From the IMG/VR virus record IMGVR_UViG_2657244943_000010: a stretch of DNA of 34,596 bases, one strand, 5' to 3'. Shown in pieces: positions 1-27,809 of this stretch (positions within the stretch are counted from its first letter, which is position 1; each line of letters starts with the position of its first letter). Origin of the DNA: a virus. Its lineage: Duplodnaviria; Heunggongvirae; Uroviricota; Caudoviricetes. The notes below the pieces were generated by a model. It made no database searches. It was not told the origin of the DNA and was given only the letters and a program-made list of their open reading frames with translations. A program made the position numbers and the translations under genes.

Positions 1-1023
1 TTATGTGGATGAAATGTGGATGCCTCCTTTTAACGGATTAAGTGAAATTGCATCCTGGAGGAAATCAGGAGCGAGGTGCGCATAGGTCATAGTTTGCTGG
101 ATCGTGGCGTGCCCCATAATTCGCTGGAGCGTAAGTATATTTCCTCCATTAATCATAAAGTGAGCAGCAAAGGTATGGCGTAGAACATGTACAGCCTGTC
201 CTTTTGGTAGGTCTGGCTTAACACTGCGAAGCACCTTGCGATATTCCTCATAATTGACGTCAAACAAAAGGCCGGATTTCTTTGTTTTGATCTCACTAAC
301 AACTTCATCAGAGACAGGAATAATTCGAACTTTTCCGTTTTTAGTTTTGTTAAACGTCACGCGATTATTGATGATGTGTTCCGCGCGCAGATTTTTCGCT
401 TCTCCCCATCTCGCCCCAGTACTGAGACAAAGTAGCGTAATCCGCCGGGCATCACCGCTTACTGCATCCAGTAATTTGGCGATTTCTTCCGTGGTGAGAT
501 ACGTCATTTCGGGTGATTTTCGTTTCAAAGAGGGGAGGGCGCGGAGCGGATTTTCTCCGTGAAATTCCCCGGCATTTGCCAGGAGTGTAAACATTCCTCC
601 GAGATCCGACTCATCACGCCGAACAGTAGACTCTTTTACTCCCAAGGATAAACGGGAGCTTCGATAAGCGGCCATGAAACGAGCATTAATCTGGCTAACC
701 CTTGGATCATTCATTTCTTTGATGATTTTTTTCAACCTGGTTAGAACGCCGTTAGCATATGGCTTATTGCGTCCACCCAATTCCCACCATAACGGAAGCA
801 GATCTGAGAGATGACGTTGCTCTGTTGGCTTTTCAAGCCATTCCTTATCGTGCATGTGGCTGAGAACATAACGCTCAAAGGCCACTGCATCTGCCTTTTT
901 CTTAAAAATCCGCTGAATCCGACGTCCACTTCGGCCACGCGGTCTAACATCCACTTTATACCGTCCACCATCGAGCGCTTTAATTGCCATTGGCAAGCCC
1001 TCCGGTGAAACGAGGAAAGACAT
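1..1023 (-). CDS. int: Tyrosine recombinase / phage integrase, P2 Int family
   Basis: 340-aa ORF, ATG at 1021-1023, stop at 1-3; C-terminal catalytic region (VHVLRHTFAAH ... MGHATIQQTMTYAHL) typical of tyrosine integrases; lies beside a C-type repressor as in P2. Confidence 0.9.
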   Translation of the reverse strand: MSFLVSPEGLPMAIKALDGGRYKVDVRPRGRSGRRIQRIFKKKADAVAFERYVLSHMHDKEWLEKPTEQRHLSDLLPLWWELGGRNKPYANGVLTRLKKIIKEMNDPRVSQINARFMAAYRSSRLSLGVKESTVRRDESDLGGMFTLLANAGEFHGENPLRALPSLKRKSPEMTYLTTEEIAKLLDAVSGDARRITLLCLSTGARWGEAKNLRAEHIINNRVTFNKTKNGKVRIIPVSDEVVSEIKTKKSGLLFDVNYEEYRKVLRSVKPDLPKGQAVHVLRHTFAAHFMINGGNILTLQRIMGHATIQQTMTYAHLAPDFLQDAISLNPLKGGIHISST

Positions 1024-3633: not shown

Positions 3634-3837
3634 ATGAACAAAAAGACCTGGTTTCGCGCATACATGTGGGCGCTGGTATGCGTCCTCGTTTCTCTCATTC
3701 TGTATGCAGGACTACTCCCCCGAATGATTTCATCAGACAGCTCCTTCCTGGTATTGCTGGGCATTTTCATTGCCATGCTGTACCCGGCAGGCGTTGTTCG
3801 CCTTTTCAGTAAGTACATCAAGGAAATCAAACAATGA
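3634..3837 (+). CDS. Small two-TM membrane protein (67 aa)
   Basis: Two hydrophobic segments (WALVCVLVSLILYAGLL and FLVLLGIFIAMLYPAGVV); stop overlaps start of the SPFH gene (ATGA). Confidence 0.55.
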   Translation: MNKKTWFRAYMWALVCVLVSLILYAGLLPRMISSDSSFLVLLGIFIAMLYPAGVVRLFSKYIKEIKQ

Positions 3838-4664
3838 AGAAATTCAAACTCTTTCAGATTCTCCCGCTTTTTGCTGCCATTCTGCTGGTTGGTTGCGATC
3901 GCGTTGAGCCAGGTAATGTGGGCATCAAAGTCAACAAACTGGGCGACGACAAAGGCGTCGGTGAAGTGGTTGGCGTTGGACGCTACTGGACAGGCTGGAA
4001 TACAGAGGTTTACATCTTCCCAACCTTCAAACAAATGAAGACCTACGATGAGCCGTTCAGCTTTCAGATGAGTGACGGCACAACCATCGGCTATCACATC
4101 GGTGTGGCCTACAAGGTTGATCCATCCAAAGTTACTACAGTGTTTCAGACCTACCGCAAAGGCGTGGATGACATTACCGACACTGACCTGCGCCAGAAGA
4201 TCGCCGACGCACTCAACCGACTGGCCAGCAAAATGACCACCGATAAATTTATCGACGGTGGCAAGTCTGAACTGCTGGATTCAGCACTTAAAGACATTCA
4301 GGCAGAAATGACACCTATCGGCATTCAGGTAATGAGCCTCTCTTATGTCGGTAAACCGGAATACCCACCAACCGTTATCGACAGCATTAATGCCAAAGTC
4401 ACGGCAAACCAGAAAACTCTGCAACGCGAACAGGAAGTCAAGCAGCGCGAAGCAGAAGCCAACATGCTACGCGCAGAAGCAGCCGGACAGGCTGATGCCA
4501 TTCGCACAAAAGCCCAGGCTGAAGCCGACGCCATTCGTTTGCGCGGAGAAGCTCTGCGCCAGAACCCCGGCGTTATGGAGCTGGAAGCTATCAACAAATG
4601 GAACGGCACGCTGCCGCAATATATGACCAGTAATACCGCTGTTCCGTTTGTTCCGGTGAAGTAA
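3834..4664 (+). CDS. SPFH / band-7 (stomatin-prohibitin-like) domain lipoprotein
   Basis: 276 aa; N-terminal signal with lipobox LLVGC; central region reads like an SPFH fold; C-terminal Ala/Glu/Arg/Gln-rich coiled-coil tail typical of band-7 proteins. Confidence 0.75.
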   Translation: MKKFKLFQILPLFAAILLVGCDRVEPGNVGIKVNKLGDDKGVGEVVGVGRYWTGWNTEVYIFPTFKQMKTYDEPFSFQMSDGTTIGYHIGVAYKVDPSKVTTVFQTYRKGVDDITDTDLRQKIADALNRLASKMTTDKFIDGGKSELLDSALKDIQAEMTPIGIQVMSLSYVGKPEYPPTVIDSINAKVTANQKTLQREQEVKQREAEANMLRAEAAGQADAIRTKAQAEADAIRLRGEALRQNPGVMELEAINKWNGTLPQYMTSNTAVPFVPVK

Positions 4665-5706: not shown

Positions 5707-8529
5707 ATGACGGCAGAGTACATCAGGGACTGGCAACAACCGCGCCACGCAGTGGGGCGTGAAGGAACGGGGATCCCCGCTCCTGAATCCGCGCTTTCCT
5801 CCTGGCTGGATGCCTACCGGGTAGAGAACGAACGCCGCCAGGAAATGGCTGATGCGGCGTTCTCCGCCACGCCGCTGGGCAACCTGATTAATAAAAGCCT
5901 GGACGCACAGGAAAAACAGGACAAAACCATCACACTGGCAGGAGACGCCAGAAAACAGGCACGCGGCGCGGTGGATGAAGCCATGGCCTCGCTGCGCCTG
6001 CTGCCGTCCTATCTGCGCGATCCGCTTATTCGCCACCTCTCCTTCCTGCGCAAAAAACAGGAAGCCGATCGCCGGAAAGGCAAAAAGAGCTGGCAGGCGG
6101 AACGCTATGCACGCGGAACCCTGCGCAAAATATTCGAACGTCTGGATCGCACTGACGGACACTGGCTGACACCGGGTTATCGCTCCCTTGCCGGACGCGA
6201 ACGCCTGGACGATTTGCTTTACCTGCCGCAGCTCAACAAACACCAGATACAGACGCTGGCCACCATGACGGCGGCGATGTTCAGCAGCACCTTCGAAAAA
6301 CTCTGCGATGGCTTTGGCGCGACTGATGGCGAACTGACCATGGATGTAACGCTGAAGGCGTATCAGATGCTGGCCCGCATGGCGTTACACCTGCACGCCA
6401 TGCCTCCACATTATGACGCACTGACAACAGACAAAGACCGGAGGAACGAACCGGACACGGAGCTGCTGCCGGGCGCAATCCTCCGCCTGACCTGTGCGGA
6501 ATGGTGGAAACGCAAACTGTGGCTGTTACGTTGCGAGTGGAGAGAAGAACAACTCCGCGCCGCCTGTCTGGTTTCCAGAAAAACATCGCCCTATCTGAGC
6601 CAGGACGCGTTAAGCGAGTTTCGCGCACAGCGCGAGAAAACACGCGATTTTCTGAAAAGTTTCATGCTGGAAAACGAAGACGGGTTCACGATTGATCTCG
6701 AGACAGTGTATTACGCGGGAGTAAGTAACCCGGTTCACCGTAAGGCAGAAATGATGGCCACCATGAAGGGGCTGGAACTTCTGGCCGAAGCCCGTGGCGA
6801 CAGAGCGGTGTTTCTGACTGTCACCTGCCCGTCAAAATACCACGCAACAACGGAGAACGGTCATCCGAATCCCAGATGGAACGGGGCCACCATGCGCGAC
6901 TCCAGCGATTACCTGGTTAACACGTTTTTTGCGGCGGTCCGCAAGAAACTGAACCGCGACGGCCTGCGCTGGTATGGCATCCGCACGGTGGAGCCTCACC
7001 ATGACGGCACCGTGCACTGGCATATGATGGTCTTTGCTCATCCGGAAGAAATCGACACTATTGTGTCCCACACCCGCGATATTGCCATTCAGGAAGATCG
7101 TCACGAGCTGGGTGATGATATTACCCCACGCTTTAAGGCGGAGTACGTCGACGGCTCAAAAGGCACACCGACCAGCTACATCGCCACCTACATCGGGAAA
7201 AACCTGGACAGCCGTGCCGTGGATGGCATCGACCCGAAAACGGGCAAGCCACGCGTTGACCACGAAACCGGAAAATCAATGGCCGAGAGCGTGGAACGCG
7301 CCATCGGCTGGGCGCGCCTTCACCGGGTCCGCCAGTTCCAGTTCTTTGGCATCCCCTCCCGCCAGGTATGGCGTGAACTGCGCCGCCTTGCCAGCCAGAT
7401 GGCACGCAACCCGGAAGGCCCGCAACGGCTGAAGGATGACGCAATGGATGCGGTTCTTGCCGCCGCTGATGCCGGATGTTTTGCCACCTACATAGAGAAA
7501 CAGGGCGGCGTACTTGTTCCACGCAAAGACTACCTGATTCGCACCGCCTACGACCTCGCCGATGAGCTGAACGATTACGGCGAACAGAGCGTACAGATTT
7601 ACGGGATCTGGTCACCACTCATCGGGGAATCCTCCCGTGTGTGCACGCATCCGGATAACTGGAAGCTGGTAAGACGCAAACCGGAAGCGGAAGACAGCGC
7701 CCGCGAAAATGGTTTTGACCTTCAGGGCGGCCCTGCCGCCCCTTGGACTCGTGGCAATAACTGTCCCCGTGTACAGGAAACGGACAACAACGGGACAGAA
7801 CAGCCGGAAGAACGGCCAGCACCGTGGCCGCAGCTTCCTGACGGCGTTGATGTGGATGAATGGATGCGCTCACTGAAACGGCACGAACGCCGGGCGCTGA
7901 TGCGTTCGCTGCGTGACAAACAGGCAAAAAACAGCAGTGATGAAATGCAGAGCTGGACACAGAGCCGCAAACAGCAGCGGCCTTTGCCTGATAACCACGA
8001 ATTACTCGCTAAAGAATGGCGGGAGTCTGCCGAATCTCTCGGCCTGCATATCGGTGAACAGCAGATGCAGCACCTGTTACGGGGCGGCAGCCTGTACGTT
8101 GACGGCAGCATCATTGCACCGCAGGGATTTGAAATTGTACGCAAACCGGATACCCGCCCGGACAGCCGAATCACGCAGCTCTGGCAGCGCCTGAGCCGTA
8201 ATCACGGCGTAAGCAGCACGGAGATCCGCCATAACCCGGTCGCCGGCTATCTGGAGCAGCTGGGGGCATCAGACCCCGAAGCCGCCGCACGCCTGGCATC
8301 CACACTTCAGCAGGACCAGAACACCATGAAAACCCCCGTTACCGTGCTTTCTGACATGCTGCGCGCCATCCGTGACGCAGAGCACGCACAGAGAATCAGT
8401 GAAACCACTGAACGCGCCCACCACAAAGCAGACCTGCTGCGGGGTAGCCTGACCAGTGGAAACAAAAAACAGACAGAAACGGGATTCACAAATCCCATAA
8501 ATGAGCAAAAAACGCACCATAAAACATGA
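5707..8529 (+). CDS. A: Rolling-circle replication initiation endonuclease, P2 gpA family
   Basis: 940 aa; HUH-type motif HDGTVHWHMMVF and tyrosine pair SYIATYIGKNLD as in P2 A; long low-complexity C-terminal extension. Confidence 0.85.
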   Translation: MTAEYIRDWQQPRHAVGREGTGIPAPESALSSWLDAYRVENERRQEMADAAFSATPLGNLINKSLDAQEKQDKTITLAGDARKQARGAVDEAMASLRLLPSYLRDPLIRHLSFLRKKQEADRRKGKKSWQAERYARGTLRKIFERLDRTDGHWLTPGYRSLAGRERLDDLLYLPQLNKHQIQTLATMTAAMFSSTFEKLCDGFGATDGELTMDVTLKAYQMLARMALHLHAMPPHYDALTTDKDRRNEPDTELLPGAILRLTCAEWWKRKLWLLRCEWREEQLRAACLVSRKTSPYLSQDALSEFRAQREKTRDFLKSFMLENEDGFTIDLETVYYAGVSNPVHRKAEMMATMKGLELLAEARGDRAVFLTVTCPSKYHATTENGHPNPRWNGATMRDSSDYLVNTFFAAVRKKLNRDGLRWYGIRTVEPHHDGTVHWHMMVFAHPEEIDTIVSHTRDIAIQEDRHELGDDITPRFKAEYVDGSKGTPTSYIATYIGKNLDSRAVDGIDPKTGKPRVDHETGKSMAESVERAIGWARLHRVRQFQFFGIPSRQVWRELRRLASQMARNPEGPQRLKDDAMDAVLAAADAGCFATYIEKQGGVLVPRKDYLIRTAYDLADELNDYGEQSVQIYGIWSPLIGESSRVCTHPDNWKLVRRKPEAEDSARENGFDLQGGPAAPWTRGNNCPRVQETDNNGTEQPEERPAPWPQLPDGVDVDEWMRSLKRHERRALMRSLRDKQAKNSSDEMQSWTQSRKQQRPLPDNHELLAKEWRESAESLGLHIGEQQMQHLLRGGSLYVDGSIIAPQGFEIVRKPDTRPDSRITQLWQRLSRNHGVSSTEIRHNPVAGYLEQLGASDPEAAARLASTLQQDQNTMKTPVTVLSDMLRAIRDAEHAQRISETTERAHHKADLLRGSLTSGNKKQTETGFTNPINEQKTHHKT

Positions 8530-8569
8530 AGTGCGCGCAAAACAGGCAAAAACGGGATTTCAGAATCCC
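8481..8569. repeat. Two related palindromic elements upstream of parM (candidate centromere/operator)
   Basis: AAACGGGATTCACAAATCCC (palindrome 8481-8496, inside the 3' end of A) and AAACGGGATTTCAGAATCCC (palindrome 8554-8569, intergenic). Confidence 0.4.
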
Positions 8570-8605
8570 GTATACGGTTAATTAATCAACATAAGGAAAA
8601 TCGAC

Positions 8606-9565
8606 ATGAAAATTTGTATCGACGACGGCTCCACCAACATCAAGCTGGCATGGACTGAGAACGGCGAACGCCGCAACGCCATCAGCCCGAACAGTTTCAA
8701 GTCGGAATGGTCTGCGCCGTTCGGTGGCACGCAGCCCGCGAACTACATGCTTGATGGCGTGCGCTATGGTTTTGATCCGGTCAGCGATCGCTTTGTCCAG
8801 ACGACCGACACGCAATACCAGTACAGCGATGTGAATGTCATTGCCATTCATCATGCGCTGGTCAAATCAGGCATCACGCCACAGGAGGTGGATGTAGTTG
8901 TCACCCTACCACTGAGCGAGTATTTCGACACAAACGCACAGCCGGACATGGTCAACATCAACCGCAAAAAAGCGAACGTTATGCGCCCGGTGGAGTACCA
9001 GAACGGCGAGGCATTCACTATCCGTAACGTGCGGGTTATGCCTGAATCCATTCCGGCTGGCTTTAAAGCACTGGCTGACATGAGTCCGTTTGAATCCCTG
9101 CTGATTGTGGATTTGGGCGGAACCACGCTGGATGTGGCAAAGGTTCAGGGGCAACTGGCAGGTATCAGCCAGGTGTTTTGCGATCCACACGTAGGCGTTT
9201 CTCTGATGGCCGATGCCGTGCTGTCGGTGATGGCCACCAACGGTATGCGCACCAGTCACCACATCGCCAATACCATTATCGAACATCGCCACGATGAAGC
9301 CTGGCTGCGCCAGCACATCCACAATGACGCGCATTATGCCAGCCTGATGGCAGTTATTCGTGAAAAGGAGGAAACACTGAAACAACGCGTGATCCGTGCG
9401 CTGGCGGGTTTTTCGGGTTACGGGCGGGTGATGGTTGTAGGTGGAGGAGCGGAGATTGTGGCACCCGCTATCCGCGAAGCCTGCGGAGTTAATGCGACTT
9501 TCATCGCGGACGGGGTGCCACAGTTTGCTCTGGTTAATGGGCTGTACGCAATGGACAAGGAGTAA
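8606..9565 (+). CDS. parM: ParM-type actin-like partition ATPase
   Basis: 319 aa, AAGGAAAA RBS; N-terminus ICIDDGSTNIKLAW ... ISPNSFKSEW ... YQYSDVNVIAIHHALVKSGI closely parallels plasmid R1 ParM/StbA as I recall it. Confidence 0.85.
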   Translation: MKICIDDGSTNIKLAWTENGERRNAISPNSFKSEWSAPFGGTQPANYMLDGVRYGFDPVSDRFVQTTDTQYQYSDVNVIAIHHALVKSGITPQEVDVVVTLPLSEYFDTNAQPDMVNINRKKANVMRPVEYQNGEAFTIRNVRVMPESIPAGFKALADMSPFESLLIVDLGGTTLDVAKVQGQLAGISQVFCDPHVGVSLMADAVLSVMATNGMRTSHHIANTIIEHRHDEAWLRQHIHNDAHYASLMAVIREKEETLKQRVIRALAGFSGYGRVMVVGGGAEIVAPAIREACGVNATFIADGVPQFALVNGLYAMDKE

Positions 9566-9569
9566 ATCA

Positions 9570-9884
9570 ATGACGACACCAACCAGACGGATAAGTTTCT
9601 ATCTGAAGCCCGCCGTCGTCAAGAGCGAACGGGAGGCGTGCAGTTACCTCGACAGCCTGCCAGCCTCCGAACGCAGCCGCGCACAACGCGCGGCTTTTCT
9701 GGCTGGACTGGCTCTTATAAAACGCACCCCCGCGTTGGCGTATTCGCTGGCAGAATGGTCAGAAGACGAAATACGGATGCCACCGCTACCAGTACAGCCT
9801 GAAAAACCGGCGCAACCAGCAGCAGACAGCGCCCCCCATATGCAGCAGGTGAAAAAGAATATTCAGGCGTTTTTCCCGAAGTGA
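9570..9884 (+). CDS. parR: ParR-type centromere-binding adaptor
   Basis: 104 aa from ATG 9570 (AGGAG upstream); RRISFYLKPAVV ... YLDSLPASERSRAQRAAFLAGLAL parallels R1 ParR; 4 nt after parM stop. Confidence 0.75.
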   Translation: MTTPTRRISFYLKPAVVKSEREACSYLDSLPASERSRAQRAAFLAGLALIKRTPALAYSLAEWSEDEIRMPPLPVQPEKPAQPAADSAPHMQQVKKNIQAFFPK

Positions 9885-9898
9885 AAACAGGAGTAACT

Positions 9899-10186
9899 AT
9901 GTCCACCATTACCAAAGAATGGTTACAACGTAAAATCACAGAGTTTAAATCGTGGCGCGAAGACATCCCGTTCGGTCTTGATGAAGACGATCACAATATG
10001 TTAATCGCACTGGAAATCGCACTTGCATCACTGGAAGCAGAGCCAGTGGCATGGATGCACGCAAATAATCCTATTGGAATACCGGCGATAACAAGAAGTA
10101 AAGATGTTGCAGACAGCTGGCGCTCTAAGGGATGGAATGTATTGCCTCTTTATTCACTGACCCGCTCCATCAATTTATGCCATTAA
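9899..10186 (+). CDS. Hypothetical acidic protein (95 aa)
   Basis: ATG 9899 with AGGAG 6 nt upstream; lower GC than phage core; stop overlaps next start (TAATG). Confidence 0.5.
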   Translation: MSTITKEWLQRKITEFKSWREDIPFGLDEDDHNMLIALEIALASLEAEPVAWMHANNPIGIPAITRSKDVADSWRSKGWNVLPLYSLTRSINLCH

Positions 10187-10557
10187 TGGAAGTAATCATG
10201 ATGAAAGATAATTCCGGAAGCCAGCGTGCATCAGTTGCAGTTATGGTAATGATTAAATTTGTGAAACAGTACACCGGAAAGCCAATCTCGCTCCGGCAAT
10301 TAAGCAAAGAAACCGTTTCACTGTCATATCTGGAGCAAATATTCAGATATTTACGGGAAAGTAGCCTGGTAAAAGCCACACGCGGCCCGGGTGGTGGATA
10401 TATCCCAACAAAAGAAAATTACAGTGTTGGTGATATTGTCCGGGCAATGAAATGTTCCGGATTATATACACAGCACGTTATTCTGGCTGCACTGGATAAT
10501 ATTTCTTTAACCAGCCTGCAGGAAGACACAAATTATCAGTTGTCTGCCATTGAATAA
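10186..10557 (+). CDS. Rrf2-family (IscR/NsrR-like) winged-helix regulator, short form without the Cys cluster
   Basis: VSLSYLEQIFRYLRESSLVKATRGPGGGYIP matches the Rrf2 recognition helix and wing; only one Cys; gene is visibly AT-rich relative to neighbours; start could also be 10198 or 10201. Confidence 0.7.
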   Translation: MEVIMMKDNSGSQRASVAVMVMIKFVKQYTGKPISLRQLSKETVSLSYLEQIFRYLRESSLVKATRGPGGGYIPTKENYSVGDIVRAMKCSGLYTQHVILAALDNISLTSLQEDTNYQLSAIE

Positions 10558-10560
10558 GAA

Positions 10561-10606
10561 AACCCGGAACGGGTGCGCAAATTCTTTGTGCGCCCGTTCC
10601 GGGTTG
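10561..10606. terminator. Long GC-rich hairpin between convergent genes
   Basis: AACCCGGAACGGG (10561-10573) pairs with CCCGTTCCGGGTT (10594-10606); T-rich tract follows on the minus strand downstream of the ogr-like gene. Confidence 0.5.
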
Positions 10607-10625
10607 GACAAGCGAAGCGCGTCAG

Positions 10626-10883
10626 CTATCCGGCCTGCAACAACTCCAGAGCCATTTGTTTTTCTTCCGGACGCATCCGCTCAATCAACAGCTTTAACAC
10701 ACCATTCTCCAGCCCGCTGGGCACCAGTGTGTGCGAGTAGGTCAGATTCATCACCCAGGTATGTCCGCACTCGAGACGGGTGCAACGGTAATACACATCA
10801 GCAAACTGATCGGTTTTCCAGGCTGTTTTCTCAATCACTGCATGTGCACCGCAGCAATGACATCGCGCTTTCTGTCTGCGCAT
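10626..10883 (-). CDS. ogr: Ogr/Delta-family zinc-finger late-gene transcription activator
   Basis: 85 aa from ATG 10883 (GGAGG 7 nt upstream); CHCC ... CTRLEC cysteine spacing resembles the Ogr/Delta zinc finger; C-terminus longer than P2 Ogr. Confidence 0.65.
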   Translation of the reverse strand: MRRQKARCHCCGAHAVIEKTAWKTDQFADVYYRCTRLECGHTWVMNLTYSHTLVPSGLENGVLKLLIERMRPEEKQMALELLQAG

Positions 10884-16702: not shown

Positions 16703-17197
16703 ATGTTTGACGGGAAAAGCATTCACTATCAGCAGGCCATTATTCAGAACGATGGATTCTGGCCGGATATTGATGCCGGCGATTTTGAAAAGAGCCGCAG
16801 CATCCCCGCCGTCACGTCACACGAAACGGTGCTGACGGCGCTGCTTTGCGCGGTAACAGAGATTAACACTGAACTGGCTGCACGCCGTGAATACTGGCAG
16901 GAACAGGGCCACATCCGGGCCGCTGATATTCCGGGTTACACCGTGTTGCAACCAGAGCCGCGCAATACGGATGCACAACCGGAACGGATGCAGAACCACA
17001 TTACAGCACTGTACACCAAGGCTGTGTATGCCCGCGCAAAGGCCGATCTTTTGCCGGAATCTGCCAGCGTGGGGCGGCGCGAGGCGCAGCCATCATCAGA
17101 AGCCAGCGAAAGCCGCCGGACGTTGCTGGCTGAAGCGGCCATGGCGGTGCGGGCGCTGCTGGGCCGACCGCGTGCATCCATCGCGCTGATTGATTAA
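16703..17197 (+). CDS. L: Head completion/stabilisation protein, P2 gpL family
   Basis: 164 aa from internal ATG 16703 (GGAG upstream) of track ORF 16508..17197; size and position match P2 L. Confidence 0.7.
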   Translation: MFDGKSIHYQQAIIQNDGFWPDIDAGDFEKSRSIPAVTSHETVLTALLCAVTEINTELAARREYWQEQGHIRAADIPGYTVLQPEPRNTDAQPERMQNHITALYTKAVYARAKADLLPESASVGRREAQPSSEASESRRTLLAEAAMAVRALLGRPRASIALID

Positions 17198-17206
17198 GGA
17201 AATGGT

Positions 17207-17680
17207 ATGACGCAACTCGCCAGCCTGACGGCATTCATTGAAAACAATCTGCCGGCACGCGCACGCATTCCGTTCACCAGTGACATGGATGACATCACGC
17301 TCGTTCCGTTTACGAAGTCGCTGGGGCACGGGCAGTTATGTACGCAGGTCCGAAAATATACGGCTTTTCTGCGATGGGACGCATGGCCCTATCGTCAGCT
17401 CAATCCGGATTTGGTGTTTTCTCTGGTTGAAGCCTGGCTGGCAGACAACGGCGGTGACCTGCGCCAGCGCCTGGCACCGGATGCGCCAGCCGTTGACGTC
17501 GAAGTGGATGATGAAAATGAAGTGGCATGGCTGGAAATCAGTCTGCCGCTGGTTGATCCCATCACCCTGGTTGAGGACGAAAACGGCCCCATCCCCAGAG
17601 GCGGGAAACGTTACCAGCTGGAAAAGCCTGAAATCTGGGTGGCTCAGGCGCATCAGCTTCACTGCCAGGTGATGCCATGA
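17207..17680 (+). CDS. Putative tail completion protein (gpR-like position)
   Basis: 157 aa immediately after gpL; assignment by position and size. Confidence 0.45.
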   Translation: MTQLASLTAFIENNLPARARIPFTSDMDDITLVPFTKSLGHGQLCTQVRKYTAFLRWDAWPYRQLNPDLVFSLVEAWLADNGGDLRQRLAPDAPAVDVEVDDENEVAWLEISLPLVDPITLVEDENGPIPRGGKRYQLEKPEIWVAQAHQLHCQVMP

Positions 17681-18390
17681 CGCGCTCCGTGATTAACGAG
17701 TCACAACTCCGGCAGGTTCGTCGCGCCATCAGAGAGGCAGAACTTCCGCCGGCAAAGGCCAGAAAGCTGCTGGTTCGCATTGCGAAATACGGCCTGATAC
17801 CGGCTGCACGACGCAATGTGAAAGCACAGCGAACACCGGAGGGGGCAGCCTGGGCACCACGAAAAAGACCGGATAAAGCCAGCGGCAGGTATAAAAACAA
17901 AATGCTGCTGGGACTGCCGAAACTGCTGGCCATCAGGGTTGACGGCAGCGGGAAAAGTGTCCGCCTTTTCTTCAAAAAAGGGGATTACAACACCGGCTCT
18001 CATGGTGGGGCGGTCGCGTGGGTGCAACAGCACGGCGCAACCATCAAAGGCCGCGCCACAAAACGCCGGGACAGCGAAGCCATGCGCACCCGTCCAGCCA
18101 CACGACGGCAGGCAGAACGCCTTCTTTCTCTGGGCTTTCGCGCCTCCGTCGGCGCAGTCAACAAAAAAAACGGACGCAGGGGACGCAGAAAGCCTTCTCT
18201 GAAATGGATTATGGAAAACATGAGTATGGCGCAGGCCGGACTGGTGATCAGCATTCTGAAAGGCGAGCAGAAAAAACGTGTATGGGAAATCAAAATCCCC
18301 TCCCGCGCATTTCTGGGAGCCAGCGATGCTGAATTTGCCCGTATTCTGGAAGCGCAGCTGCGCAGCCTGCATTACGGCGGCACGAGATAA
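17677..18390 (+). CDS. Putative virion morphogenesis / tail completion protein (gpS-like position)
   Basis: 237 aa basic protein, ATGA-coupled to the upstream gene. Confidence 0.45.
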   Translation: MTRSVINESQLRQVRRAIREAELPPAKARKLLVRIAKYGLIPAARRNVKAQRTPEGAAWAPRKRPDKASGRYKNKMLLGLPKLLAIRVDGSGKSVRLFFKKGDYNTGSHGGAVAWVQQHGATIKGRATKRRDSEAMRTRPATRRQAERLLSLGFRASVGAVNKKNGRRGRRKPSLKWIMENMSMAQAGLVISILKGEQKKRVWEIKIPSRAFLGASDAEFARILEAQLRSLHYGGTR

Positions 18391-18409
18391 CAAAATCAGG
18401 AGACAAACC

Positions 18410-19558
18410 ATGACATGGCCATCTGTCACGATTGAACAGTACAACACATTCAGCAGTTCACCGGACGGCGTGGAAAATACGCTGCTGTTTGTGGGCAATG
18501 CACAAAACAACAAAGGTGAGGTTCTGCCGGTTAATGCCAACAGCGATCTGGATGAGCTACTGGGAAAGAACGCCAGCCCGCTGAAGAACTTCCTTCAGTC
18601 TGCACTGACCAATGCCGGACAGAATGCCTTTTTCTATGTTGCCGTTCTGCCGGAAGCCGGCAAAGGCAAAGAAGCAACGCCAGCCTGCCAGGTATGGCAG
18701 AACGCCATACTGGCGGCTCAGGAAACTGTTTCAGTTGAAGGCGTGGTGATCACCGAGCCGGTCAGCACGAAGGATGACATCAACGCCATACAGGCGTTAC
18801 GTCAGACCATCATCAATAAATATCAGCGCCGCATCTGGTTCATCCTGACCATCGCCGCCAACGACAACAGTAAAACCTGGGCGGAATACGTTGCCGAACT
18901 GACCGCACTACAGAAAGGCATTGCAGCCCCGCAGGTCATGCTGGTTCCGGAGATTTTTGGATTTGAACCGGGCGTTCTTGCCGGTCGCCTGTGTAACAGC
19001 GCCGTCACCATTGCTGACAGTCCGGCACGTGTGGCAACCGGGCCCCTGTCCGCACTGAAAACCACAGAACGCCCGAAAGACAGCACAGGGCAGGCAATTG
19101 ATCTCGACACTCTGCAGGCACTGGCAACCGCCCGCTACAGCGTGCCCATGTGGTATGCCGACTATGACGGCCTTTACTGGGCTGACGGTGTAACACTTGA
19201 AGTGGAAGGCGGGGACTACAACGTCATTGAGCATGTCCGCATTGCTGATAAGGTGGCGCGCCGCGTGCGGCTGATGGCCATCCCCAAGATTGCCGACCGC
19301 TCGCTGAACAGCACGCCGGGCAGCATTGCCGCACATGAAACGCTGTTTGCCCGCCCACTGCGTGCCATGGCGAAATCCATGCAAATTAACGGCATCACGT
19401 TTCCGGGCGAAGTGAAATCGCCCCGGAAAGGCGACGTGGTTATCACCTGGCAGGACGAAAAGACGGTCAGCATCAGCATTGTCGTCCGCCCTTACGCCTG
19501 CCCTAAAACCATCAAAGTGGGCATTCAGCTGGATAAATCTCTGGAGGAAAACGCATGA
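18410..19558 (+). CDS. Putative contractile tail sheath protein
   Basis: 382 aa from ATG 18410 (AGGAG upstream); position before tube, chaperone and tape measure; assignment positional. Confidence 0.5.
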   Translation: MTWPSVTIEQYNTFSSSPDGVENTLLFVGNAQNNKGEVLPVNANSDLDELLGKNASPLKNFLQSALTNAGQNAFFYVAVLPEAGKGKEATPACQVWQNAILAAQETVSVEGVVITEPVSTKDDINAIQALRQTIINKYQRRIWFILTIAANDNSKTWAEYVAELTALQKGIAAPQVMLVPEIFGFEPGVLAGRLCNSAVTIADSPARVATGPLSALKTTERPKDSTGQAIDLDTLQALATARYSVPMWYADYDGLYWADGVTLEVEGGDYNVIEHVRIADKVARRVRLMAIPKIADRSLNSTPGSIAAHETLFARPLRAMAKSMQINGITFPGEVKSPRKGDVVITWQDEKTVSISIVVRPYACPKTIKVGIQLDKSLEENA

Positions 19559-20010
19559 CGACCCGCATTAACGGCATGGCGTTTGACACTTTTATCGGTG
19601 GAACGGATATCCATGTGAAAAGCATCTCACTGGACATCAGCGATGAAAGCGCCGTTGCCAAAACCCGTGGCATCCCTGACGGTAAACTGCGCGGCCCTGT
19701 CAGTGCCGAAGGTGAAATCGAAATGAGTACCCGCAGCTTTAACCAGCTCGGGGAAGTGGCTGCTCAGGCGGGATCGTGGCGTGACCTGCCGCCAATGGAT
19801 TTTGTGTTTTACGCCAATACGGGAACCGAAGAAATCCGCGTTGAAGCCTTCGGTTGTGAGCTGATGCTTTCTGGCCTGTTAAGCATTGACACCGAGAGCG
19901 CAGATCTGACCACGCACAAAATCAAGTACGTGGTGGCAAGCCCTGACTTTGTGCGTATCAACGGCGTGCCCGTTCTCTCAGAGAACGACGTGCGCGGACT
20001 GATGGGGTGA
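19555..20010 (+). CDS. Putative tail tube protein
   Basis: 151 aa, ATGA-coupled to the sheath gene; assignment positional. Confidence 0.5.
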   Translation: MTTRINGMAFDTFIGGTDIHVKSISLDISDESAVAKTRGIPDGKLRGPVSAEGEIEMSTRSFNQLGEVAAQAGSWRDLPPMDFVFYANTGTEEIRVEAFGCELMLSGLLSIDTESADLTTHKIKYVVASPDFVRINGVPVLSENDVRGLMG

Positions 20011-20013
20011 ACC

Positions 20014-20310
20014 ATGCAGGAGCATGAGCGCACCATTATCACTCTGGGCATTCTGGGCGGAATCGCTGCCGCAAGTCGGGTGCTGGCTGGCGCAGAGCCG
20101 ATTACGTTGCGGTTGTTTGTGGGCCGAACCCTGCTGGGGAGCGCGCTGGGTGTTTCTGCCGCTGCCCTGCTGGTTCGCTACCCGAACCTTGACCCACTGG
20201 CCATTGCCGGCGCAGGCACCGCAATGGGCGTTGCCGGTTACCAGATTGTTGAAATCTTCCTGCGTCATATGCGCCGGAAGCTGGGCGAGAAAGAGAACAA
20301 AGAGGAGTAA
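20014..20310 (+). CDS. Putative holin
   Basis: 98 aa with hydrophobic segments (IITLGILGGIAAASRVL, TLLGSALGVSAAALLV, LAIAGAGTAMGVAGYQIV) and charged C-terminal tail; directly upstream of the endolysin. Confidence 0.5.
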   Translation: MQEHERTIITLGILGGIAAASRVLAGAEPITLRLFVGRTLLGSALGVSAAALLVRYPNLDPLAIAGAGTAMGVAGYQIVEIFLRHMRRKLGEKENKEE

Positions 20311-20315
20311 CAGCA

Positions 20316-20423
20316 ATGCTGTCCCGCAGGGAACAAAAAGCTGCCGCCATTGCCTGGAAAATTATCCGGGCACTGTGGTACTGGCTGCGCAAACCTCAGC
20401 AACCTCATAAGGAGCAAAAATGA
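20316..20423 (+). CDS. Small basic amphipathic peptide (35 aa) between holin and endolysin
   Basis: ATG 20316 with AGAGGAG 8 nt upstream; stop overlaps endolysin ATG; translation MLSRREQKAAAIAWKIIRALWYWLRKPQQPHKEQK. Confidence 0.3.
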   Translation: MLSRREQKAAAIAWKIIRALWYWLRKPQQPHKEQK

Positions 20424-20761
20424 AACTCTCCGATAAGCAACAACAATTTACCGTCATGATCGGAAAACTCATCCAGTTTGCCCATCAGCGCGGTTATGGC
20501 CTGACGTTCGGTGAGGCGTACCGCACGCCAGAACAGGCAAAACTCAACGCACAAAAGGGATCCGGCATTGCCAACAGCCTGCACTGCCAGCGGCTGGCCG
20601 TGGATTTTAATCTGTTTATTAACGGTGAATATCAGACCCGCACAGAGGCCTACCGCGAGCTGGGCGAGTACTGGGAATCCCTTGGTGGCGCATGGGGCGG
20701 TCGTTTTAAAAACCGCCCGGATGGCAATCATTTCAGCCTTGAGCACGACGGCGTGCGCTGA
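20420..20761 (+). CDS. Endolysin, M15-family zinc peptidase (L-alanyl-D-glutamate peptidase type)
   Basis: 113 aa; SLHCQRLAVD and DGNHFSLEH match the H-x6-D ... H zinc-ligand pattern of small phage M15 endolysins. Confidence 0.75.
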   Translation: MKLSDKQQQFTVMIGKLIQFAHQRGYGLTFGEAYRTPEQAKLNAQKGSGIANSLHCQRLAVDFNLFINGEYQTRTEAYRELGEYWESLGGAWGGRFKNRPDGNHFSLEHDGVR

Positions 20762-20767
20762 TTTTAC

Positions 20768-20811
20768 GCTTAATAAGCCTTCCTGCAGGCTTATTAAGCC
20801 CTCTTATTCTT
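20768..20811 (+). terminator. AT-rich perfect hairpin after endolysin
   Basis: GCTTAATAAGC (20768-20778) pairs with GCTTATTAAGC (20789-20799), extendable to 13 bp; T-rich tract follows. Confidence 0.4.
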
Positions 20812-20825
20812 GACTTTAAAAGGAA

Positions 20826-21119
20826 ATGATGATGAACGATAAAAACACCCAGACTACCGCAGAGAACACCATCACTTTACAGGTCGGCGAGCATGAACTG
20901 ACGTTTATCCCGACCGTAAAAGCCTACAACGACCTGCAGAACGACTTCATGCCGGATAACAAAATCGCGCCGCTGAAAAACTACCTGCGCCGTATCGTGA
21001 TTAAAGAGCACCGCGATCTGCTGAACCAGTTGCTGGAAAAACCAGGAATGCCGGCCAGCCTGGCAACAGCCGTGAATAACGAGTTTGTGCCGGAAGTGGA
21101 AATCACCGTAAAAAAATAA
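20826..21119 (+). CDS. Tail assembly chaperone (short, zero-frame product)
   Basis: 97 aa directly upstream of tape measure; ends in an A7 slippery run. Confidence 0.6.
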   Translation: MMMNDKNTQTTAENTITLQVGEHELTFIPTVKAYNDLQNDFMPDNKIAPLKNYLRRIVIKEHRDLLNQLLEKPGMPASLATAVNNEFVPEVEITVKK

Positions 21120-21307
21120 AAAGCCATCTGGGGGCCATTGATCGCCATGACCTTACCCGGATGCTGATCCTGCGCCGCCACTGGCTGCCCGGCGAGGATG
21201 ACTCGCCGCAGTCACTGGCTGCCGCCGTCTGGCTGGATAACCACTACTGGGAAAATATGAGCATCGCCGTCAATAACGGCATTATCCGTGCTTTTAAGGG
21301 ATCGTAA
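21110..21307 (+). other. Programmed -1 frameshift site and -1-frame extension of the tail chaperone
   Basis: Heptamer A_AAA_AAA at 21110-21116 spans the last zero-frame codons; the -1 frame stays open for about 63 codons (KKIKSHLGAIDRHDLTRMLILRRHWLPGEDD...AFKGS) to TAA 21305-21307, overlapping the tape-measure ATG. Confidence 0.6.
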
Positions 21308-23403
21308 TGTCACAACAGCGCCTTGAATTACTTCTTGAACTGACAGACCGCCTGACAAGGCCGTTGCGTGCAGCCGGGCGACAGGTTCAGGGATTTGCTG
21401 CAACAAGTCGGGGAGCCTTTCGGGACATTGCTACCGGAGGCGCTGCGCTCTGGGGAGTGGGTGCAGCCATTCAGGGGGCACTGATGCCAGCCATTGAAAT
21501 GGACAGGGCGCTCGGTGAGGTGAAATCACTGGGCGTCGCAGAGTCCGGATTGCGTAAACTCAGCCGCGCCGCCGTTGATTTCACTATGGAATACGGCGGG
21601 GCTGCGCAGGATTTTGTGCGTGCTTCTTACGACATCCAGTCAGCCATTGCCGGGTTAACTGACGATGAGCTGTCCCGCTTCACCACCGCATCAGCAACGG
21701 TGGCAGCAGCAACCAAATCCAGCAGCCAGACCATTACCGCCTACATGGGCACCATGTACGGCATCTTTAAAGACCAGGCTGATGCCATGGGAAAAAGCAA
21801 ATGGGTGGAGCAGGTCGCCGGGCAAACCGCCACCGCCGTGCAAATGTTTAAAACAACCGGCGATAACATGTCAGCAGCGTTCACCACGCTGGGTGCCAGT
21901 GCAAAAGCGGCCGGTATTGATGCGGCTGAACAGTTCGCCGTGCTGGGACAACTACAGGCCACCATGAGTGGCAGCGAGGCCGGGACAAAGTACAAGGCAT
22001 TTCTTGCCGCAGTAGGCAGCGCCCAGAAAAAGCTGGGGCTTAATTTCGTGAATAAAGACGGCACGATGAAAAGTGTTGTCGAGATCATGAAACTTATCAG
22101 GGGTAAATTTGGTGATCTGTCAAAAGTGGCTGATTCCGATTTGCTGAAAAGCGCCTTTGGCTCCGATGAAGCTGTGGCCATGATTAAATTACTCAATGCG
22201 GACATTGGCGGACTTGAAAAGAATATCGCCACGCTGGGCAATATCAAAGGTATGGATAAGGCTGTCGAAATGGCACAGGCCATGGCTGATCCATGGGAAC
22301 AGGCCGCTGCAATTATTAACGGCATTCGCATCGAAATTGGCACGCAGTTGCTGCCTGTTCTGTACCCGTTTATCCAGAAAAGCAACGAAGGCGGTAAATC
22401 CTTTGTTGCTTGGTTACGCCTGTATCCAAACATCACTCGCGCAATCGGCTTATTAAGCGCGGCACTTATTGGTGTTGCGGCGGTTGGCGCAACGGTCAAT
22501 GTCGTAATGGGGGTTGCGAAATTTATCTGGGTGGGATTACGCATGGTCTGGATGGCCGTCATCGCCCCACTGAAATTAATCGTTTTTCTGTATCGCACAA
22601 TGAGAGTGGTTATGCTTGCGCTCTGTGCTGCCGCCCGCATGGTAAGAGCAATATATCTGGCAATAAACATCGCCATGGGAGTGATGAATATTCGCGCCAG
22701 AGCACAACTGCTATTGATGGGCCTACAACGTGCCGGAATGCTCCTGCAGGCAGCAGCATTATCAGCCGTTTCTGTTGCCATGGGGATTTATTCCGCAGTC
22801 ACCAGCGGAGCCGCAATTGCAACACAATTACTTTTCAGCCCCATCACATTAATCATCCTGGCACTGGCTGCGCTGGGTGTGGGCATTTATTTCCTGATTA
22901 CCCGCTGGGATGAGATTAAAGCCGCGCTGATGGATACCGCCGCCTTTCAGTGGGTGGCTGAAATGGTCGGCAGTATGGGGGAATGGTTCGGCAATGCATG
23001 GAACACAATCCAGGACGGCTGGAATGCACTGGTTAACTATTTTTCCACGCATTCACCACTGGATGCCCTGAAGGATCTCGCGGGCGGCATCCTGAATATT
23101 TTCAGTAACCTCTGGGAACTGGTGAAACAGTCCTTCAGTGATTCATGGGGCTGGATTGTAGGCAAGCTCAACATGATCCCCGGCGTCAATATCGACACAC
23201 CGGAAAGCACAGGAAGTGGCGAAGGCTCCGTATTAACCGGCAGCAAAGCCATCAGTGCGGGACCGGGCGGCATTGCGGCAGAGATGCAGAACAACAGCGA
23301 AAACCAGACCACCATCGACAACTCCCGTCGTGTGGTTAACGTCAATGTGCAGGATCCATCCCCTGCCCGTCTTAACGAGTGGATGGAGCTGCATGCATAC
23401 TGA
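21307..23403 (+). CDS. Tail tape measure protein
   Basis: 698 aa; Ala/Gly-rich helical N-terminal half, hydrophobic middle segments, position after chaperone/frameshift. Confidence 0.85.
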   Translation: MSQQRLELLLELTDRLTRPLRAAGRQVQGFAATSRGAFRDIATGGAALWGVGAAIQGALMPAIEMDRALGEVKSLGVAESGLRKLSRAAVDFTMEYGGAAQDFVRASYDIQSAIAGLTDDELSRFTTASATVAAATKSSSQTITAYMGTMYGIFKDQADAMGKSKWVEQVAGQTATAVQMFKTTGDNMSAAFTTLGASAKAAGIDAAEQFAVLGQLQATMSGSEAGTKYKAFLAAVGSAQKKLGLNFVNKDGTMKSVVEIMKLIRGKFGDLSKVADSDLLKSAFGSDEAVAMIKLLNADIGGLEKNIATLGNIKGMDKAVEMAQAMADPWEQAAAIINGIRIEIGTQLLPVLYPFIQKSNEGGKSFVAWLRLYPNITRAIGLLSAALIGVAAVGATVNVVMGVAKFIWVGLRMVWMAVIAPLKLIVFLYRTMRVVMLALCAAARMVRAIYLAINIAMGVMNIRARAQLLLMGLQRAGMLLQAAALSAVSVAMGIYSAVTSGAAIATQLLFSPITLIILALAALGVGIYFLITRWDEIKAALMDTAAFQWVAEMVGSMGEWFGNAWNTIQDGWNALVNYFSTHSPLDALKDLAGGILNIFSNLWELVKQSFSDSWGWIVGKLNMIPGVNIDTPESTGSGEGSVLTGSKAISAGPGGIAAEMQNNSENQTTIDNSRRVVNVNVQDPSPARLNEWMELHAY

Positions 23404-23743
23404 TAAACCGCTTTACATTGATTTGCTCATCACCGGCCGCAATCTCACGCTGAACAGCGCCAGTGAGCCGGTGTTATGCAACAACAGGGAAAGTATTGCC
23501 CAGGACTGCCAGCACGCCATCATTGAAAGCGGACTGGCAACGCGCCTGCTGGCTGAAAAAAGCCCGACGCTTCGTGCCGACATCATGATGCAGATGACAC
23601 TGCTGATTGAAGATGATGAGCGCATCACACCTGGCACGGTCAGTGTGACAGAAGAAACCCCGCTTTCTGGTCGCCTGCTGATTAGCGCCCACACCGAAGA
23701 TTTTTTTGAACCCCTGACTTTTACGGTATCTCTTGATGATTAA
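23393..23743 (+). CDS. Putative baseplate wedge protein (gpW/gp25-like position)
   Basis: 116 aa from ATG 23393 (GGAG upstream); directly precedes the baseplate J-like gene. Confidence 0.4.
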   Translation: MHTDKPLYIDLLITGRNLTLNSASEPVLCNNRESIAQDCQHAIIESGLATRLLAEKSPTLRADIMMQMTLLIEDDERITPGTVSVTEETPLSGRLLISAHTEDFFEPLTFTVSLDD

Positions 23744-24920
23744 CGGCAAACCTACCGCAGATTACGAGCGCATTCTGGCTGATAATGGCATGCCGGTAAC
23801 CGAAGAACAGGCACGTGCTGAATTTGAAGCCATTGTCAAAGACGAAGGGCTTATCACCAACACATCCCGCATGTCGCCGTTCTGGCGACTGATTACAGCT
23901 ATCACCACAAAACCCGTAATGTGGCTGAAAGATGCGCTGGTTAATGTGGTGATGAAAAACCTGTTTCTGGCTGATGCCAGCGGTGTATTCGTTGATGTTT
24001 TTGCCTGGGCGGTAAACCTGCAACGCAAGGCCGCCACGCACGCAGCCGGCGTGATTCGTTTCACCAAAAACGACATTGATCACGCAGTTACCGTGCCGGC
24101 CGGTACGCAGATTCAGACAGAACGCATTAACGGCGTGATTTATACGCTGACCGTTGTCAGGGATACCGTTATTCCGGCAGGAACACTCAGCATGAACATC
24201 GATGTTTCTGCGGAACAGGCCGGGGCCGGCTTTAACCTTGCGCCGGGATATTACCGCATCCTTCCGGTGGCGATTGATGGTATTGCCGGTGTTGAGAACG
24301 ATGAAAACTGGCTGACCACACCGGGTGCCAACGAAGAAAGCGATGACGAGCTGCGTGATCGTGTTCGCAATCAGTTTAATCTTGCCGGCGCTTATCACAC
24401 AGATGCTGTTTACCGGGGATTAATTGCCGGCGTTGCCGGCATCAGTGCCGACCGCATCTATTTTCTGCATGACGCACCACGCGGCCCAGGCACAGCAAAT
24501 GCTTACATTCTGCTGGATACTGGCATCGCATCCGAACCGTTCGTTGATGCAGTAAACGCATTCATTAACGATGAAGGTCATCACGGACACGGTGATGATC
24601 TGCGCTGTTTTTCCATGCCTGAAACACGCCACACCCTGACCGTGACACTCTGGTTATATGCAACACTGAACCTCAGCGATGAGGAAATTCAGACGTTATT
24701 GCGCAATGTGGAAAATCTGGTTCGCTGTGCATTTCGAGAAAACAGCGATTATGACGTTCAGAAAACATGGCCGTATAGCCGTTTCAGCATGTCCAGACTG
24801 GGCGAAGAGATCCACCAGGTATTTCCACAGGTGGAGTCGGTTACATTTTCTCTTCCGGATATTCTCAGTGATCTGGCTGTTCCTCGTCTGGAATCCCTTA
24901 CTGTGGAGGTGAGCGCGTGA
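23736..24920 (+). CDS. Baseplate J-like protein
   Basis: 394 aa; size, ESDDELRDRVRNQF segment and position before gpI-like and fibre genes match baseplate J proteins. Confidence 0.65.
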   Translation: MINGKPTADYERILADNGMPVTEEQARAEFEAIVKDEGLITNTSRMSPFWRLITAITTKPVMWLKDALVNVVMKNLFLADASGVFVDVFAWAVNLQRKAATHAAGVIRFTKNDIDHAVTVPAGTQIQTERINGVIYTLTVVRDTVIPAGTLSMNIDVSAEQAGAGFNLAPGYYRILPVAIDGIAGVENDENWLTTPGANEESDDELRDRVRNQFNLAGAYHTDAVYRGLIAGVAGISADRIYFLHDAPRGPGTANAYILLDTGIASEPFVDAVNAFINDEGHHGHGDDLRCFSMPETRHTLTVTLWLYATLNLSDEEIQTLLRNVENLVRCAFRENSDYDVQKTWPYSRFSMSRLGEEIHQVFPQVESVTFSLPDILSDLAVPRLESLTVEVSA

Positions 24921-27249: not shown

Positions 27250-27251
27250 TA

Positions 27252-27803: not shown

Positions 27804-27809
27804 GAAGTA

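Follow-up and report, generated by a model that had tools for sequence, protein, structure and literature searches.

Genes and Candidate Sites of the Locus

The DNA analyzed here, IMG/VR record IMGVR_UViG_2657244943_000010 (34,596 nucleotides (nt); "the window" below means this whole stretch), is the 34.6-kb genome of a P2-like temperate phage. Directly after its replication gene A lies a two-gene cassette preceded by two palindromes which, to judge from its sequence, is almost certainly a ParMRC partition locus (type II, R1 family). The features of the locus are the following:

5707-8529, plus strand: gene A, encoding the replication endonuclease gpA (Pfam Phage_GPA, 1.8e-130), which closes the early operon
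8466-8499: candidate parC repeat 1, in which the palindrome ACGGGATT-CACA-AATCCCAT (8479-8498) comes after an A-rich arm
8539-8572: candidate parC repeat 2, in which the palindrome ACGGGATT-TCAG-AATCCCGT (8552-8571), a perfect one, comes after an A-rich arm
8606-9565, plus strand: parM, an actin-fold filament-forming ATPase of 319 aa (Pfam, PDB and PHROG matches)
9570-9884, plus strand: parR, a predicted centromere-binding adaptor of 104 aa (Pfam, PHROG and PDB matches)

Gene A is the upstream neighbor of parM, in the same orientation, and repeat 1 falls within its last 21 codons; the RefSeq relatives of its product bear the name "replication endonuclease". The stop codon of parM (9563-9565) is followed after a 4-nt gap by the ATG of parR at 9570, which is preceded by an AAGGAG Shine-Dalgarno sequence.

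The ParM ATPase

A reading of the window made from the sequence alone (hereafter the sequence-only reading) had described the product of the gene after gene A as a ParM-like actin-type ATPase, and this was borne out by profile and structure-database matches far above the cut-offs. Residues 1-157 matched Pfam StbA_N (5.6e-82) and residues 159-316 the ParM C-terminal domain (1.2e-68); the Pfam scores were 273.8 bits for PF06406 (cut-off 24.6) and 230.6 bits for PF21523 (cut-off 27.4). PHROG 691 ("partition protein") was also matched (2.4e-90). R1 ParM (PDB 1mwk) aligned over residues 2-316 (E=1.2e-92) with an identity of about 50%. The likeness to R1 ParM that had been proposed for the N-terminal 150 aa is therefore real, but it extends over the whole protein.

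The match to ParM/StbA runs across the ATPase motifs. The segments IDDGSTNIKL, VMPESIPAG, DLGGTTLD and GGGAE are kept, so that the phosphate-binding, catalytic and adenosine motifs are intact, and the nucleotide-binding and hydrolysis motifs (phosphate 1 DDGSTxxK, the catalytic E in MPES, DLGGTT and GGGA) are identical to those of R1 ParM. These motifs (D6, D7, G8, S9, T10, E147, D169-D176 and G279-A282) were invariant in eight phage ParMs, down to 54% identity.

When compared with the same gene of phage P88, parM showed 23 synonymous differences and a single non-synonymous one, with a ratio of non-synonymous to synonymous substitution (dN/dS, Nei-Gojobori) of 0.012; the value for gene A, obtained in the same way, was 0.134. 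parM is thus under strong purifying selection. Moreover, all 94 parM copies examined were intact, with 318-321 codons. Truncated ParM clusters were also observed, P0006 with 261 aa (414 members), P0010 with 229 aa (649 members) and P0017 with 188 aa (555 members), and some of these forms sit on megabase contigs. These forms point to decay of parM in certain prophage lineages that have spread clonally and are probably defective.

The Putative Adaptor ParR

The ParR-like protein that had been proposed 4 nt after ParM was likewise recognized by Pfam PF10784, Plasmid_stab_B ("Plasmid stability protein"; 1.9e-24, 85.7 bits, cut-off 25), by PHROG 2515 ("partition protein"; 2.4e-44) and, over its N-terminal 57 residues, by ParR/StbB of pB171 (PDB 2jd3, E=0.009). 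Its predicted N-terminal ribbon-helix-helix (RHH) region bears the strand RRISFYLKP, which is invariant. Its C-terminus, KKNIQAFFPK, aligns with the tail KKNAMKLI of R1-type ParR, N97 being invariant, and a [KR]xN[AI]xx[LF]F motif is common to the C-termini of both. The AlphaFold2 (AF2) monomer of ParR contained helices at residues 20-29, 32-52, 54-61 and 90-101 and a disordered stretch at 69-87; the mean predicted local distance difference test score (pLDDT) was only 65, and about 75 for the C-terminal helix. Such a layout is what would be expected of an RHH domain joined through a linker to a helix that binds ParM. When the model was searched against the PDB with Foldseek, only noise was returned.

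Diversity is much greater in ParR than in ParM: clustering of the Escherichia hits at 90% identity yielded more than 60 groups for the former and four for the latter. At least three ParR allele families were distinguished, and the entropy profile placed most of the variation in a hypervariable linker (about residues 65-92), the C-terminal motif being nearly invariant. No association was found between the allele families and the palindrome or spacer variants described below. The three families have the same palindrome variants, and therefore there is no sign of a changed DNA specificity of ParR. The possibility of specificity switching was rejected, since the allele families do not track the variants.

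The Upstream Palindromes as Candidate parC

The repeat search returned a 34-nt direct repeat, at 8466-8499 and 8539-8572, whose copies are 79% identical and 73 nt apart, the second one lying 34 nt before the start of parM. Both copies contain a GGGATT-N4-AATCCC palindrome, exactly where the sequence-only reading had placed the two related elements. Only two sites in the window matched ACGGGATT-N4-AATCCCGT with up to three mismatches (0.10 expected), and they were the two repeats. In IMG/VR, the exact palindrome of 16 specified bases was found at at least 119 loci; five of these, at a contig end, were left out. Among the matches listed, a parM start lay within 140 nt in 109 of the 114 assessable loci, and the other five were unrelated hairpins.

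The 56 distinct upstream versions of the E. coli clade kept the arms GGGAYT and AAWCCY, with variation in the 4-nt center and in the spacer between the palindromes. Nowhere in the gpA-parM region is conservation lower than in this spacer (8497-8551, with the stop codon of gene A), which reads CGCACCATAAAACATGAAGTGCGCG in the window versus CGCGCCGCGATATATGAAGCGCGCA in most relatives, and its version is independent of the ParR allele family.

More distant relatives carry paired GGG-N10-CCC elements at an equivalent distance, GGGATTGAGGAAACCC and GGGTTCATTAAATCCC (73 bp apart) in Hafnia and GCGGGACAACAAAAACCCG and GCGGGACAACACTAACCCA (72 bp apart) in Plesiomonas. In each genus the two copies carry matching sequence changes, which is the pattern that recognition by a single protein would produce. 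Between gpA and the repeats of Hafnia lies an additional open reading frame (ORF), and the repeats remain beside parM.

The two palindromes are probably the parC centromere and/or operator, and they are the best candidate for it, with ParR as the predicted reader. They are taken as candidate protein-binding sites because distant relatives keep only weak stems, the arm variants are not compensatory and no Rfam family was matched. The idea that they form a minimal centromere/operator, already put forward in the sequence-only reading, gains from their linkage to parM and their uniqueness in the window. If functional, the pair would rank among the smallest type II centromeres.

Distribution and Age of the Cassette

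The cassette was found in 1304 of 5426 complete E. coli genomes (about 24%), some of them with two or three copies bearing the same palindromes. There were 1444 E. coli occurrences in total, 1442 chromosomal and two on plasmids. Megablast detected it in P88, phiSM, 520873, P884B11 and other Xuanwuvirus-type phages. The names given by the Prokaryotic Genome Annotation Pipeline (PGAP) are "plasmid segregation protein ParM" and "plasmid partitioning/stability family protein".

A protein-based scan of genome contigs gave only three near-identical loci; the distant relatives came from a protein search and contig look-ups. The protein search revealed a tight clade of phage ParMs at 91-99% identity and then a gap, the next relatives being those of Hafnia and Plesiomonas (62-63%), Serratia (57-58%) and Enterobacter (54-55%). 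In the P2-like prophages of these four genera the contig look-ups showed the same layout, gpA-parM-parR-(cargo)-ogr-Q-P. Those relatives at or below 52% identity that were looked up stood in plasmid-like, ICE-like (integrative and conjugative element) or other contexts. In a neighbor-joining tree, computed without bootstrap, the phage-context ParMs formed one clade, apart from the IncF, plasmid-like and ICE-like ParMs.

By these comparisons the association of the cassette with P2-like phages is therefore old and mostly vertical, because the same layout recurs across four other genera at 54-63% ParM identity and the proteins form one clade. The sequence-only reading had considered a plasmid-derived cargo. 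The family is ultimately of plasmid type, but the cassette is not a recent cargo, given the ParMs of the four genera and their separate clade. One further ParM, with 98% identity to that of the E. coli phage, was found on a 226-kb contig assigned to "Vagococcus sp. WN89Y" (NZ_JBQPOM010000071.1), which is most likely an enterobacterial contamination or a mislabelled assembly.

A Breakpoint Inside parR

Left of a recombination breakpoint, from 8540 to 9619, the window was 92-100% identical to P88 in each 60-nt block; the block 8480-8539, with repeat 1 and the start of the spacer, was 78% identical. The first 15 codons of parR were identical to those of P88. From codon 16 to codon 65 the synonymous divergence (dS) exceeded 1, it was saturated further 3', and the protein identity to P88 ParR from codon 16 on was 52%. 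Megablast matches to phages ended at query positions 1323-1368. The features of this part are:

9600-9630: recombination breakpoint inside parR, at about codon 16 (about window position 9615)
9899-10186: ORF of 95 aa with unknown function (PHROG 660/60)
10198-10557, plus strand: Rrf2-like winged-helix regulator of 119 aa (Rrf2 models)

The homology to P88 ends at about codon 16, and therefore the boundary of the gpA-gpQ hotspot, the interval in which P2 carries tin/old, falls inside parR, whose 3' part travels with the variable cargo of the hotspot. The cassette had been assigned to the position of tin/old, and it does lie in this interval; yet parM sits on the conserved side of the hotspot, and the variable part begins within parR. 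The parR of the window is a minority allele, which together with the downstream cargo was common to only 37 of the 5426 complete E. coli genomes. As for the cargo, the protein encoded at 10198-10557 scored below the cut-off of the NCBIfam Rrf2 superfamily and covered positions 2-87 of the 132-position Pfam Rrf2 model.

Prophage Context and Expression

The remaining genes correspond to an integrase-bearing P2-like prophage, as the sequence-only reading had stated, with integrase, repressor, Cox-like protein, gpA and P2-family capsid genes all present:

1-1023, minus strand: integrase
between integrase and gene A: a helix-turn-helix (HTH) repressor, then a Cox-like protein
downstream of the cassette, minus strand: an ogr/delta-like gene, portal and terminase, with the P2-family capsid genes after them

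Copies of the window that are nearly identical (98.5%) adjoin pheA/pheL in E. coli chromosomes. No tRNAs were found in the window, and the P2 cos sequence used as a query matched nowhere in it. Within the early operon, upstream of gene A, 3834-4664 encodes an SPFH/Band 7 family protein of 276 aa (Pfam, 7.6e-31), an unusual passenger in a P2-like early region. Between the convergent Rrf2-like (plus) and ogr-like (minus) genes, in the cos-proximal gpA-gpQ interval, lies a 45-nt near-perfect palindrome (10561-10605, AACCCGGAACGGGTGCGCA...TGCGCCCGTTCCGGGTT) that is probably a bidirectional terminator.

The tail module was located at about 17200-23400 in the window, at 20814-26201 in relative L001 and at 16818-29363 in NZ_CP148288.1. 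That of the window contains a DUF2586 protein, a tail assembly chaperone and a 698-aa tape measure, according to the annotation of a 98.5%-identical relative, and differs from the V-W-J-I-H set of P2. The circular parMR-bearing record pZ1323PEC0009-2 has P2-type baseplate and tail genes. Since these differ from the tail genes of the window, the gpA-parMR module is common to phages with different tail modules.

Regarding expression, no terminator-like sites were found on the plus strand between the gene A stop and parM, the next strong structure on this strand being the 10561-10605 palindrome. A consensus promoter scan of 8300-10700 gave nothing upstream of parM; the scan also missed the known R1 par promoter, used as a control, and the negative result therefore carries no weight. 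A relaxed scan returned one weak promoter candidate, AAAACA-16-CAGAAT, whose -10 element lies inside palindrome 2.

A Proposed Role on the Free Phage Circle

The cassette is already annotated in RefSeq and has been published in passing. In their analysis of 18,150 gpA-gpQ loci, Rousset et al. (2022; PMC9122126) reported a putative partition system in about one fourth of E. coli P2-like phages, which might live as plasmids, and placed it under "other functions" in an interval rich in defense systems; the idea of a plasmid life is thus also in print. In a study of Citrobacter rodentium prophages (PMC6456863), a phiSM gene was classed as a "fitness" factor by annotation only. This analysis adds how old the cassette is in P2-like phages, how strongly selection acts on parM, the arrangement of the two palindromes, the position of the breakpoint within parR and a distribution that speaks against a plasmid lifestyle.

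The binding of ParR to the palindromes, the timing of expression and the biological role are what we infer from these data, as follows. ParR dimers would read the two GGGAYT-N4-AATCCC palindromes through the invariant N-terminal beta-strand and so build a compact centromere/operator complex. ATP-ParM filaments would then be captured at their ends by the conserved helix at the ParR C-terminus, and filament growth between two ParR-parC complexes would push sister circular phage genomes apart. The system would be active only on the free circle, either after infection and the first rounds of gpA-driven replication, before integration, or after excision, because virtually all genomes carry the prophage in integrated form and it has no replicon able to run under repression. 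As a result, both daughter cells would inherit a copy of the phage, a stabilization of a transient episome like the one demonstrated for srpMRC of the SXT/R391 ICEs. Expression could come from read-through of the cox-B-A early operon, from a weak ParR-repressible promoter over palindrome 2, or from both.

For the proposal that a complete and selected ParMRC module, long-standing in the replication region of one sublineage of P2-like phages, the P88/Xuanwuvirus group with its relatives, acts on the free circle, we consider the chances to be about even. The more specific role, stabilization of a transient episome, is suggested by analogy and held tentatively, at somewhat less than even chances. 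The chromosomal position of 1442 of the 1444 occurrences, the integrase, the lack of a plus-strand terminator after gene A and the srpMRC precedent favor a transient episome over a plasmid prophage.

Several points weigh against this proposal. Partition is of no benefit to a single circle that does not replicate, and therefore replication before integration has to be assumed. The E. coli ParR (103-104 aa) does not have the helical segment of about 25 residues present in plasmid and other phage ParRs. Only two palindromes (four half-sites) are present versus ten iterons in R1-type parC, and therefore the element may be mainly an operator. R1-type parC, as read from pHN7A8, consists of ten 11-bp direct iterons ending in ACCC and flanking the promoter; a position weight matrix (PWM) of R1-type iterons gave four hits over 8440-8605 versus 0.58 expected, a score matched by 42 of 1722 scanned windows (2.4%), and the palindrome arms do not score. 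With so modest an enrichment, homology to the R1 iterons is not claimed. The relatives in Serratia and Enterobacter have one large inverted repeat with GGGAAC...GTTCCC arms, and the palindromes of the E. coli clade fold as stable hairpins that are terminator-like on the minus strand. The expression route may be early-operon read-through, a weak ParR-repressible promoter, or both. Finally, no functional study of the cassette, nor any experiment on it, was found in the literature searched.

Alternative Explanations

The main rival is a role in the lytic cycle, similar to that of AlpAC, in which ParMRC would position or disperse the monomeric circles made by gpA in rolling-circle replication, for their replication or packaging, and so serve the efficiency of the burst rather than inheritance. 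The cassette lies directly 3' of the early gene A, in the same orientation and with no terminator-like site between them, and it has stayed with the replication module across genera; moreover, AlpAC is a precedent of a prophage actin-like system that serves efficient viral DNA replication (PMC4446434, PMC5539076). By contrast, this ParM is a close member of the R1 family (about 50%), whose documented activity is the bipolar pushing of low-copy plasmids, and about three quarters of E. coli P2-like phages are without the cassette (PMC9122126), which is therefore not required for P2-type lytic growth. This explanation is considered unlikely.

Persistence as a plasmid, as the sequence-only reading and Rousset et al. 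(2022; PMC9122126) had suggested, would mean that the phage lives as a low-copy plasmid besides or instead of integrating, for example in hosts without the attachment site. The ParM of the phage-plasmid D6 is 48% identical, and a complete P88-like phage (integrase, repressor, gpA, parMR and structural genes) has been deposited as a circular E. coli plasmid of 34,461 bp (NZ_CP148288.1). However, this was the one phage-sized circular record holding most of the cassette among the 72,556 plasmids of PLSDB, where the other high-identity hits were records of 0.2-1.4 Mb and a 26.8-kb Shigella match to half of the query was left uninspected. In 308 other genomes the integrase/immunity module of this record lies in the chromosome; the record itself represents either a phage genome that was assembled while excised or replicating or a rare carrier of an episomal form. 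Furthermore, only two of the 1444 E. coli places are not chromosomal, and the two or three copies with the same palindromes found in one genome would be incompatible as plasmids. No replicon besides the lytic gpA/ori was found among the proteins of the window, and gpA belongs to a repressible early operon. With the integrase present as well, extrachromosomal persistence is not supported, and we assign it a small probability.

A similarly small probability is given to the palindromes being RNA or transcription elements (hairpins, leftward terminators) or sites related to gene A, with the real parC elsewhere or absent. Both repeats are terminator-like on the minus strand, with a hairpin followed by a T-run, both fold stably (-7 to -11 kcal/mol, z-scores -2.5 to -3.6), and repeat 1 lies inside gene A. 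The equivalents in Plesiomonas and Hafnia, however, keep only GGG/CCC stems of 3-4 bp with 10-nt loops, the A/T runs are lost, and one of these elements folds like its shuffles (z -0.45). Variants of the GGGATT/AACCCC type are not compensatory, and in Hafnia the elements go with parM and not with gpA. The surroundings contain no minus-strand gene, and the 10561-10605 palindrome already marks the end of the leftward Q-P-ogr operon. An Rfam search of 8000-10800 (E<=1) gave only a sub-threshold chance hit and no family match.

A function in conflict, be it centromere-based incompatibility towards plasmids or related phages or anti-phage defense in the P2 hotspot, is very improbable despite the defense-rich gpA-gpQ interval (PMC9122126) and the unusual diversity of ParR, given that the linker accounts for most of this diversity and the DNA-reading strand does not vary, that the three allele families share their palindrome variants, that identity to plasmid ParRs does not exceed about 45% and the iterons of the R1-type plasmid parC examined are different ones, and that the cassette lies on the conserved side of the hotspot, in the class "other functions" of Rousset et al. 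(2022; PMC9122126). PADLOC (E<=0.1) gave no hits for ParM, ParR or the products of the two downstream ORFs, and the reading as a defense system was dropped on that account.

Returning to ParMRC acting on the free circle, a broader version of this proposal can be put forward, although it is doubtful: ParMRC would be a life-cycle organ of a large P2-like branch, in which a minimal two-palindrome centromere at the end of the replication gene segregates or positions the circles made by gpA in the brief extrachromosomal phase, so that an infected or induced cell would pass the phage on to both daughters. If this were true, a phage-segregation step that has gone unstudied would be present in a quarter of E. 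coli genomes, and the pairing of a hypervariable ParR with an unvarying ParM would lend itself to work on how adaptors evolve. Were a plasmid segregation motor shown to work for a phage that integrates, the temperate life cycle would gain a step and the srpMRC/ICE precedent would extend to tailed phages. In addition, hits to ParM/StbA and "plasmid stability" families serve as plasmid markers, and with copies in chromosomal prophages and phage circles deposited as plasmids they can lead to misclassification.

Comparison With Known Systems

Among the closest known systems are the ParMRC loci (parA/stb) of R1/R100 and pB171, with which the cassette shares the order centromere, parM, parR and the position of the repeats immediately upstream of parM. 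Also shared are a full-length ParM of about 50% identity with all the ATPase motifs, and a ParR with an RHH-type N-terminus (PF10784, 2jd3) and a KxNxxxLF-type tail. By contrast, the R1 system resides on a plasmid and this one on an integrating P2-like phage; the ten 11-bp direct iterons around a promoter are replaced here by two palindromes 73 bp apart with no clear promoter of their own; the ParR is shorter, without the internal helical segment; and repeat 1 overlaps the 3' end of gene A. The parM/parR of P88 and other Xuanwuvirus phages are the same cassette, with a ParM 99.7% identical to that of P88 and the same palindromes and position. The window differs from P88 in its parR allele, 52% identical from codon 16, and in its downstream cargo.

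Among phage-plasmids, the P1-like D6 is also a tailed temperate phage with a gene of the StbA/ParM type (48% identical). Phages of the D6 type are plasmids in lysogeny and have a dedicated replicon, whereas the phages studied here have an integrase and are chromosomal in more than 99% of the cases.

AlpAC/alpS of the Corynebacterium glutamicum prophage CGP3 likewise combines an actin-like filament protein of a prophage (AlpC) with an adaptor that binds DNA (AlpA) and the sites belonging to it. Efficient replication of CGP3 DNA requires AlpAC, whose demonstrated role is in the replication and transport of viral DNA, not in partition (PMC4446434, PMC5539076). AlpC, whose host is Gram-positive, is a distant member of the actin-like proteins.

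The srpMRC system of the SXT/R391 ICEs is, like the cassette described here, a type II partition system on a normally integrated element. It stabilizes the transient excised circle of SXT/R391 and is expressed only upon activation of the element (PMC4489591). SrpM is distant from R1 ParM, SrpR is without a recognizable ParR domain, the element is conjugative, and the function was tested there.

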